Assembly: GCA_004022145.1 (NCBI GenBank)
Contig: RCNU01000002.1
Length of the DNA: 64,000 nt
Reading direction: 5' to 3' (one strand)
Origin: Paecilomyces variotii
Taxonomy: Eukaryota
The translations under genes were made by a program, and so were the position numbers. Shown here in pieces: positions 34,870-35,150 of the stretch (positions within the stretch are counted from its first letter, which is position 1; each line of letters begins with the position of its first letter). The notes under the pieces were generated by a model. It did not search any database. It was not told where the DNA came from and was given only the letters and a program-made list of their open reading frames with translations.

Positions 34870-35150
34870 ATGAAGCAGTCCCTCTTTCTCACTTTCTTGC
34901 TGGCAGCTCTTGCTACAGCCGTGCCGATCGCTTCTGGTAAGCTGCAAAATCTGTATTACTTGCATTATCCGCAGTGAGCTCACCAGATGATTCTCTAGCG
35001 GTAGAGCGCCGCGATGGAACGACCGAGTTCGATCCCGATTTCGGATTCAAGAAGCGCGATGGTACCACCGAGTTTGACCCTGACTTTGGGTTCAAGAAGC
35101 GGGACGGCACGACTGAATTCGATCCTGATTTTGGGTTCAAGCGCACTTGA
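34870..35150 (+). CDS. Kex2-processed repeat protein / fungal RiPP precursor (signal peptide + 3x DGTTEFDPDFGF), 72-80 aa, 2 exons
   Basis: Exon 1 34870-34936 encodes signal peptide MKQSLFLTFLLAALATAVPIAS; GTAAG donor at 34937; acceptors at 34974, 34986 or 34998 are all in frame. Exon 2 reads ...VERR-DGTTEFDPDFGF-KKR-DGTTEFDPDFGF-KKR-DGTTEFDPDFGF-KR-T-stop. Confidence 0.93.
35013..35144 (+). repeat. Three 45-nt coding tandem repeats
   Basis: Units start at 35013, 35058 and 35103; within the 12 peptide codons they differ only at third positions. Confidence 0.95.

Follow-up and report, generated by a model that had tools for sequence, protein, structure and literature searches.

What is made from a small secreted protein whose repeats contain no tyrosine, if the genes beside it encode DUF3328 (UstYa) proteins? 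The question is raised by a two-exon gene of Paecilomyces variotii (contig RCNU01000002.1, assembly GCA_004022145.1), located in the 64,000-nucleotide stretch analysed here, which we call the window (Table 1). An earlier, sequence-only reading had pointed out that the repeat region of this gene is devoid of Tyr, Trp, Cys and His, and had proposed that the DUF3328 enzymes act on it by chemistry other than the Tyr ether cross-links of ustiloxin, phomopsin and asperipin. Our analysis supports the proposal and extends it to a whole family of precursors. With a probability of roughly 0.6, we consider that the locus encodes a ribosomal peptide precursor that is modified by UstYa proteins through non-Tyr chemistry. 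The precursor itself is probably a secreted repeat protein of small size that Kex2 processes, within a ustiloxin-type (dikaritin-like) pathway not yet characterised.

The precursor, its repeats and the adjoining UstYa genes

Translation of exon 2 yields three identical copies of DGTTEFDPDFGF, each with three Phe and with none of the four residues named above, as had been claimed; the complete spliced precursor of 72 residues has 11 Phe and is likewise free of Tyr, Trp, Cys and His. On their N-terminal sides the 12-mers have RR, KR and KR, on their C-terminal sides KKR, KKR and KR, the dibasic sites expected of a Kex2-processed repeat protein. The N-terminal region has its 19-residue Kyte–Doolittle-type maximum (KD19, 2.14) at residues 6-24 and terminates in the small residues A-S-A; by inspection and hydropathy it is a predicted signal peptide.

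As DNA, the array (35010-35141) has a period of 45, 2.9 copies, 80% nucleotide matches and a score of 173 (Tandem Repeats Finder). The three copies differ from each other in pairwise comparison at 9, 7 and 8 nucleotides, and all 24 of these differences are located at synonymous third-codon positions. Among the copies the third base varies in 11 of the 12 codons and the first or second base in none, a pattern with a chance of about 6e-6 if changes were spread evenly over codon positions. The confinement of the changes to synonymous third bases means that the peptide sequence, and not the DNA, is conserved; purifying selection acts on every residue of the 12-mer.

The repeat is the core region of a Kex2-type precursor directly beside two DUF3328 genes, in line with the sequence-only reading. 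The two nearest genes upstream, whose ends lie 1.1 kb and 2.4 kb away, both encode DUF3328 proteins (PF11807; 52.8 bits for the last exon of UstYa-1 and 55.4 bits for UstYa-2, gathering cut-off 25). The single transmembrane helix of UstYa-1 covers residues 42-60, and the protein has its HxxHC motifs at 158 and 188; in UstYa-2 the single helix spans residues 34-52 and the motifs are found at 148 and 182. The two proteins are 33% identical. Both have the HxxHC(x)nHxxHC arrangement behind one N-terminal transmembrane helix and are predicted to bind copper. The same architecture is described for CctR, and DUF3328 proteins such as CctR are membrane-anchored, lumen-facing, binuclear-copper proteins that need O2 and electrons (PMC12435403). 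Sequence relatives of the UstYa last exon were sought in the PDB and none was found at E <= 1.

A working definition of a dikaritin cluster asks for a DUF3328 gene near a signal-peptide protein that has kexin-separated tandem repeats of at least 10 residues (PMC9632046), and the locus has all of these elements. Of 7878 Kex2-processed repeat precursors surveyed, 22% are accompanied by a DUF3328 gene no more than 15 genes away, the mean distance being 3.09 genes (PMC7329392).

Contigs from RNA runs X1 and X4, which belong to two studies, splice 34935/6 to 34998/9 and so remove the GT..AG intron of the precursor gene. They also carry all four GT..AG introns of UstYa-1, all four minus-strand introns of UstYa-2 and the sole intron of a flavin adenine dinucleotide (FAD)-dependent monooxygenase gene downstream of the precursor. 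The precursor, both UstYa genes and the monooxygenase are thus all transcribed and spliced.

Table 1. Coordinates of the precursor gene and of the genes associated with it in the window (7TM, seven-transmembrane; aa, amino acids).
Feature	Position	Strand	Description
Pth11-like 7TM gene (Fung_rhodopsin)	~29008-30510	-	Several exons, range approximate; probable start 30510
UstYa-1 (DUF3328)	31457-32510	+	5 exons, 260 aa, PF11807
UstYa-2 (DUF3328)	32723-33748	-	5 exons, 248 aa, PF11807
Precursor gene	34870-35150	+	Two exons; 72-aa spliced product with predicted signal peptide
Precursor exon 1	34870-34936	+	Start codon and predicted signal peptide; 22 codons plus 1 base; 3' edge set by RNA joints
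Precursor intron	34937-34998	+	62 nt, GTAAGC..CTCTAG, phase 1
Precursor exon 2	34999-35150	+	A-VERR, three 12-mers with KKR/KKR/KR spacers, final T
Repeat region	35013-35138	+	42 codons, within exon 2: DGTTEFDPDFGF-KKR-DGTTEFDPDFGF-KKR-DGTTEFDPDFGF
Precursor stop codon (TGA)	35148-35150	+	After final T
Group A FAD-dependent monooxygenase (predicted)	35779-37103	+	422 aa, one intron 36613-36668, PF01494 (FAD_binding_3)

A precursor family and a conserved set of genes

Searching 1.84 billion representative proteins with a profile yielded 47 matches at E <= 1e-3, 12 of them at E <= 1e-10, and a second, word-indexed profile search gave 54 matches at E <= 1e-3 among 8000 scored candidates. Eight of the 47 are omitted from the family statistics: six long proteins (629-2862 residues), and P0044 and P0050, which lack the motif. 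A search for longer homologues of the precursor found none, which is weak evidence against many-repeat forms. The repeat statistics are based on 67 proteins including that of the window, some of them near-duplicates; the search pattern matched 66 of these and gave 162 repeats.

The 37 matches with a named organism, among them PVAR5_6178, QC761_404500, VP1G_00607, Slin15195_G092750 and CKM354_001173900, are all annotated as ‘hypothetical’ or ‘uncharacterized’. The organisms include Paecilomyces lecythidis, P. variotii and Aspergillus ellipticus, many Xylariales, Podospora and other Sordariales, Cytospora mali, and also Pseudocercospora, Cercospora, Septoria linicola and Zasmidium. Five species that were checked are spread over Eurotiomycetes, Sordariomycetes and Dothideomycetes, three classes of Pezizomycotina; for the other named organisms the class is presumed. 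Some of the named family members come from crop pathogens and food-spoilage moulds. No paper in the searchable literature text contains the 12-mer or the sub-motifs looked for; supplementary tables, which lie outside that search, may list the family. The precursor of the window is the first described member of what, judged by its sequences, is an unnamed, widespread family of at least 66 proteins, most of them Tyr-free.

The repeat consensus of the family is R-DG-x-TEFD-x-D followed by a variable hydrophobic tail of three to four residues. D1 and G2 are demanded by the search pattern, hence both positions are uninformative. At the positions that follow, the commonest residues are T4 (151 of 162 repeats), E5 (142), F6 (138), D7 (149), P8 (109) and D9 (156), and Arg stands immediately before D1 in all but three repeats. 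After D9 the tail is three residues long in 129 repeats and four in 29, with variants such as FGF, FAL, FAF, LAF, AVY, YGF, LEF, FFL and LMIL. Its first residue (position 10) is Phe in 66 repeats, Leu in 43, Ala in 24, Tyr in 11 and Gly in four; its last is Phe in 84, Leu in 53 and Tyr in 18. Tyr is present in 31 of the 162 repeats, invariably within the tail in the sequences read. No Tyr, Trp, His or Cys is found in 119 repeats, and 51 of the 66 proteins have no Tyr in any repeat. Since Tyr is absent here and from most relatives, the conserved reaction cannot be the Tyr-O-C-beta ether formation of ustiloxin, phomopsin and asperipin.

Two further details of the sequence-only reading do not agree with these counts. 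The division of the repeat into a recognition sequence DGTTE and a core FDPDFGF cuts through the conserved block, which spans positions 1-9 (DG-x-TEFD-x-D) and includes F6. A mechanism that needs all three Phe is unlikely, F10 and F12 being replaceable in relatives by Leu, Ala, Gly or Tyr; a family-wide mechanism can therefore use only F6 among the aromatic residues, or none. The lack of Tyr is less unusual than that reading implied, Tyr occurring in just 65.6% of the repeats of 1758 DUF3328-linked precursors (PMC7329392). So many uncharacterised precursors of this kind exist that the family is a good target for mining rather than a surprise.

In 22 proteins the sequence stops exactly after the tail. 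Some of these may be truncated gene calls, and in the second locus, L001, described below, the stop is a true one. Because 22 relatives including L001 end there, the C-terminal edge of the core is placed at the last hydrophobic residue; the Lys that usually trails the tail looks like part of the cleavage signal. Two close homologues of exon 2, P0003 (98%, P. lecythidis) and P0004 (92%, P. variotii), share its layout. In P0004 (P. variotii No. 5) the three repeats, DGTTEFDMDFGF, DGTTEFDPDYVF and DGATEFDPDFGF, are non-identical and one contains Tyr, so that a single strain may yield three product variants, one of them with Tyr.

Locus L001, from a distant fungus, was obtained by scanning metagenome contigs with the family alignment, and is the one locus confirmed from 130 pattern matches. 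A stretch of 20,117 bases, 10 kb on either side of its precursor gene, was analysed, with 13 segments scanned against Pfam. The L001 precursor has an intron at the matching position (phase 1, after the signal peptide) and two DGTTEFDPDFAF units, the second of which terminates directly at the stop codon. It is accompanied by one UstYa gene (PF11807, 55.2 bits) that is nearest to UstYa-1, with 57-67% identity in the two best exons and with HxxHC present. A second UstYa copy was not found in this stretch, where the UstYa-2 query matches only the locus better matched by UstYa-1. L001 also has an FAD monooxygenase that is 65% identical over 421 residues to that of the window and a Fung_rhodopsin gene with 43-68% identity in four segments to the 7TM gene of the window. 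Beyond these four genes, no L001 open reading frame (ORF) of at least 60 residues matches the 64-kb window. Because the other L001 ORFs, and a transporter and a flavoprotein ORF of the window (see below), are without counterparts, the conserved unit appears to consist of precursor, UstYa, FAD monooxygenase and 7TM protein, with UstYa-2 an extra of this genome.

The monooxygenase is assigned to the group A flavoproteins by its match to PF01494 (E = 4e-11 in the window, 1e-15 for the L001 orthologue) and by its nearest solved structures, salicylate hydroxylase (6bz5), TropB (6neu), SorC and AfoD, every one a phenol-acting enzyme; for the L001 orthologue the PDB matches have E-values of 7e-39 (6bz5) and 2e-37 (TropB). 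Its GxGxxG fold begins at the N-terminus and there is no signal peptide. An enzyme of this phenol type is compatible with aromatic oxidation of the peptide without proving it.

The 7TM gene is located upstream of UstYa-1. It matches PF20684 at 43.1 bits (cut-off 27), the domain by which Pth11-like class XIV receptors of fungi are recognised; for the majority of these 7TM proteins no ligand has been assigned (PMC13308352, Table 1). The gene product is accordingly named here as a predicted Pth11-like class XIV protein, with G-protein coupling and a ligand both putative. Three of its exon ORFs were scanned, and none showed a CFEM domain.

Pfam scans of 34 window segments gave no match to a tyrosinase, a small-molecule methyltransferase or a peptidase, and the 13 L001 segments gave none to a tyrosinase or methyltransferase; small or heavily spliced genes could escape such scans.

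Proposed chemistry and its alternatives

By analogy with alpha-factor and ustiloxin-type processing, the precursor protein would enter the endoplasmic reticulum, Kex2 would cleave after RR or KR in the Golgi, and a Kex1-type carboxypeptidase would trim the trailing Lys and Arg to leave three DGTTEFDPDFGF 12-mers. UstYa-1, as a lumen-facing binuclear-copper protein, would oxidise a C-H bond of the peptide in the manner of CctR and the dikaritin enzymes, and UstYa-2 may contribute a further step in this genome. The likeliest targets would be the invariant T4-E5-F6-D7-x-D9 block, an obvious candidate for one of two roles, recognition or reaction, and/or the hydrophobic residue at the C-terminus. 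Possible outcomes are a hydroxylation or desaturation, as in cyclochlorotine and in the dehydro-residues of phomopsin, or a cross-link formed through a non-phenol nucleophile or, as in victorin, an oxidised Phe. The FAD monooxygenase would supply an aromatic hydroxylation or dearomatisation.

The ustiloxin and phomopsin systems (UstA/PhomA, UstYa/Yb, PhomYa-e) share with the locus a signal peptide, tandem core repeats, KR sites and adjacent DUF3328 genes with HxxHC(x)nHxxHC and one transmembrane helix; their clusters, too, can include flavin monooxygenases. However, ustiloxin and phomopsin cores begin with a Tyr that is ether-linked to the C-beta of Ile, for which a tyrosinase is needed (PMC7329392, PMC10540207), whereas the core here has no Tyr and the accessory genes are the phenol-type FAD monooxygenase and the Pth11-like 7TM gene. 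The Tyr that an aryl-ether macrocycle uses is missing from the 72-residue precursor, and the tyrosinase and methyltransferase of the five-gene dikaritin cluster (Ding et al., as quoted in PMC12048977) are missing from the segments scanned. Functional clusters that have neither enzyme exist (PMC12048977).

Asperipin-2a (AprA/AprY) is made by a minimal cluster, a repeat precursor and a single UstY homologue with no tyrosinase or peptidase (PMC12048977), and it resembles in this the one-UstYa form found in L001. It differs in that its bicycle is built from Tyr side chains (PMC9233826) and its accessory gene is a reductase. The epichloecyclins (GigA/GigB) likewise come from a very small cluster with a Kex2-cut multicore precursor and one DUF3328 cyclase. 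Their cluster contains a methyltransferase, and Tyr is present in all but one GigA-like propeptide of a nine-species alignment, where it is used for cyclisation (PMC10540207). The pathway encoded here would operate as a ustiloxin-type one, yet its core is unrelated to that of ustiloxin, phomopsin, asperipin or epichloecyclin.

The sequence-only reading had named victorin of Cochliobolus victoriae, with a core that reportedly reads GLKLAF, as a Tyr-free precedent, and the choice was apt. Victorin is a DUF3328-type ribosomal peptide with post-translational modifications (RiPP) whose Tyr-free core terminates in Phe, where the family described here ends in Phe, Leu or Tyr, and it is cyclised between the side chain of that C-terminal Phe and an internal Leu (review, PMC9233826). 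Its core sequence is unrelated, it is chlorinated, and its terminal Phe has no strict equivalent here, Leu taking this place in 53 of the 162 repeats. The DUF3328 proteins CctR, CctO and CctP2 of cyclochlorotine biosynthesis act on C(sp3)-H bonds without Tyr, in hydroxylation, chlorination and isomerisation (PMC12435403), and they offer the best precedent should the chemistry on this core not be a cyclisation. In chemical terms, victorin and these cyclochlorotine enzymes come closest to the present system.

Several points weigh against the reading that we prefer. Synteny is seen at just two loci, the window and a single metagenome contig, and the RNA evidence consists of contigs, which carry no information on co-regulation or expression level. 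Because it has no signal peptide the monooxygenase is probably cytosolic, and it would meet a secretory peptide only after a transport step. The solved proteins nearest to it act on phenols, and the 12-mer core has no phenol. Rather than being where the chemistry takes place, the conserved block could serve for recognition and be discarded afterwards.

The phenol-type monooxygenase leads to a different scheme, in which one Phe would be ring-hydroxylated to a phenol by the UstYa copper centre or another oxidase and then enter a standard UstYa aryl-ether macrocycle, with the monooxygenase oxidising the ring further in a victorin-like manner. That the nearest relatives of a conserved enzyme are salicylate hydroxylase, TropB, SorC and AfoD would suit this hidden form of the standard route, as would the 31 of 162 repeats in which Tyr takes the place of Phe at position 10 or 12, one of the three in P. 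variotii included. Group A monooxygenases, however, normally require a pre-existing phenol, no tyrosinase was matched among the 34 window segments, and the frequencies of Leu, Ala and Gly at position 10 and of Leu at the last position leave F6 as the only Phe that could serve across the family. Although the cyclisation of victorin through its C-terminal Phe side chain again speaks for the scheme (PMC9233826), we judge it unlikely. Quite unlikely, in our view, is that DGTTEFDPD is a discarded recognition or solubilising spacer and the product a very small modified tail peptide, such as xDFGF or FGF. Species differ greatly in the tail, but within a protein it is identical, which is typical of RiPP cores, and the trideca- and tetradecapeptides of UstA end as a four-residue product (PMC10540207). 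Tails such as GAF, AAF or LAF, however, offer no conserved residue pair for a cross-link, and no peptidase gene was found among the scanned segments of either locus. This alternative overlaps with the non-Tyr modification that we favour, the sole difference being which residues survive.

The peptides might also be secreted unmodified, as linear, signal- or pheromone-like products released by Kex2, while the UstYa proteins and the monooxygenase act on something else. As many as 78% of the surveyed Kex2-processed repeat proteins have no nearby DUF3328 gene, and many of these are presumed linear (PMC7329392); the conserved set includes a receptor-like 7TM gene; and an ESM Atlas feature search, whose scores of 0.77-0.82 were all below the level that counts, listed alpha-factor precursors at 0.78. 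The Atlas contains no structure model of the precursor. Against this stand the two DUF3328 genes as immediate upstream neighbours and the recurrence of precursor, UstYa and monooxygenase in a distant fungus that shares no other genes save that for the 7TM protein. In the survey, moreover, 213 of 216 putative fungal pheromone precursors (98.6%) are without a DUF3328 gene within 15 genes (PMC7329392), and we regard secretion of an unmodified peptide as quite unlikely too. It would be a long shot to propose that the clustered Pth11-like protein is the dedicated receptor, or a sensor or immunity partner, of a peptide from a new class, one that a binuclear-copper UstYa protein would modify or cross-link without Tyr on the invariant TEFD-x-D motif. 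If true, class XIV, a large orphan family of fungal G-protein-coupled receptors, would gain its first peptide ligand; the linked gene is a rare and testable lead toward a ligand of this receptor class.

Victorin aside, the structurally characterised fungal DUF3328 ribosomal peptides in the literature considered depend on a Tyr side chain. The invariant motif of the present family is Tyr-free, so that one solved product would reveal further copper-enzyme chemistry on peptides. The minimal cluster of precursor, one UstYa, flavin monooxygenase and 7TM protein is small enough for heterologous reconstitution.

Other genes and transcripts of the two loci

The remaining genes of the window are housekeeping or unrelated genes, among them those for a DEAD-box helicase, an FtsJ methyltransferase, a MET10-like flavoprotein, a protein kinase and DNA polymerase delta. 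A large phytochrome-type hybrid histidine kinase (PAS_2, GAF, PHY, HisKA, HATPase_c and Response_reg domains) is encoded at 21322-25743 on the minus strand. A Zn2Cys6 transcription factor (Zn_clus and Fungal_trans_2) at 51378-52544, also on the minus strand, is 16 kb from the precursor, too distant to be called a cluster regulator without data.

Two minus-strand ORFs downstream of the precursor were considered as cluster members and rejected for want of a counterpart in L001. The ORF at 39292-41313 encodes 673 residues with a Flavoprotein domain (PF02441) and a long C-terminal extension. The PF02441 family includes the Cys decarboxylases of bacterial lanthipeptide pathways; the precursor, however, is free of Cys, and L001 holds nothing that corresponds to this HFCD-type ORF. 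The major facilitator superfamily (MFS) transporter at 42827-44572 (PF07690, E = 2e-48), 7.7 kb downstream of the precursor, also has no counterpart in the L001 stretch; it might still export the product in this genome.

In L001, the gene for the A49 subunit of RNA polymerase I is found downstream of the cluster (18416-19673, plus strand). The five upstream ORFs scanned gave no match to a Pfam family, and no transporter, peptidase or regulator was found within 10 kb (ten ORFs scanned). This cluster, too, is embedded among ordinary genes.

Of the RNA data, runs X2 and X3, labelled metatranscriptomic, gave solely unspliced contigs with 90-99% likeness over 31000-37500; the longest contigs of the two runs reach 176 kb and 87 kb. 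It seems that genomic DNA from a related strain found its way into these RNA libraries, and the contigs are uninformative on expression. A single X1 contig skips 68 bases (35350-35417), which on the minus strand have the form GTGAGT...ATATAG of a good fungal intron; a spliced minus-strand transcript therefore seems to occupy the interval from the precursor's 3' end to where the monooxygenase gene starts. No minus-strand ORF of at least 40 residues overlaps 35350-35417, the nearest being one of 40 residues at 35715-35837.

Upstream of the precursor, an X1 contig runs continuously from UstYa-2 exon 1 to 34621, about 870 nt past the ATG of that gene, and the contig that carries the precursor starts at 34771. 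Only about 150 nt, with TATTTAAA near 34697, therefore separate the divergent transcripts, which suggests a shared bidirectional promoter for UstYa-2 and the precursor.

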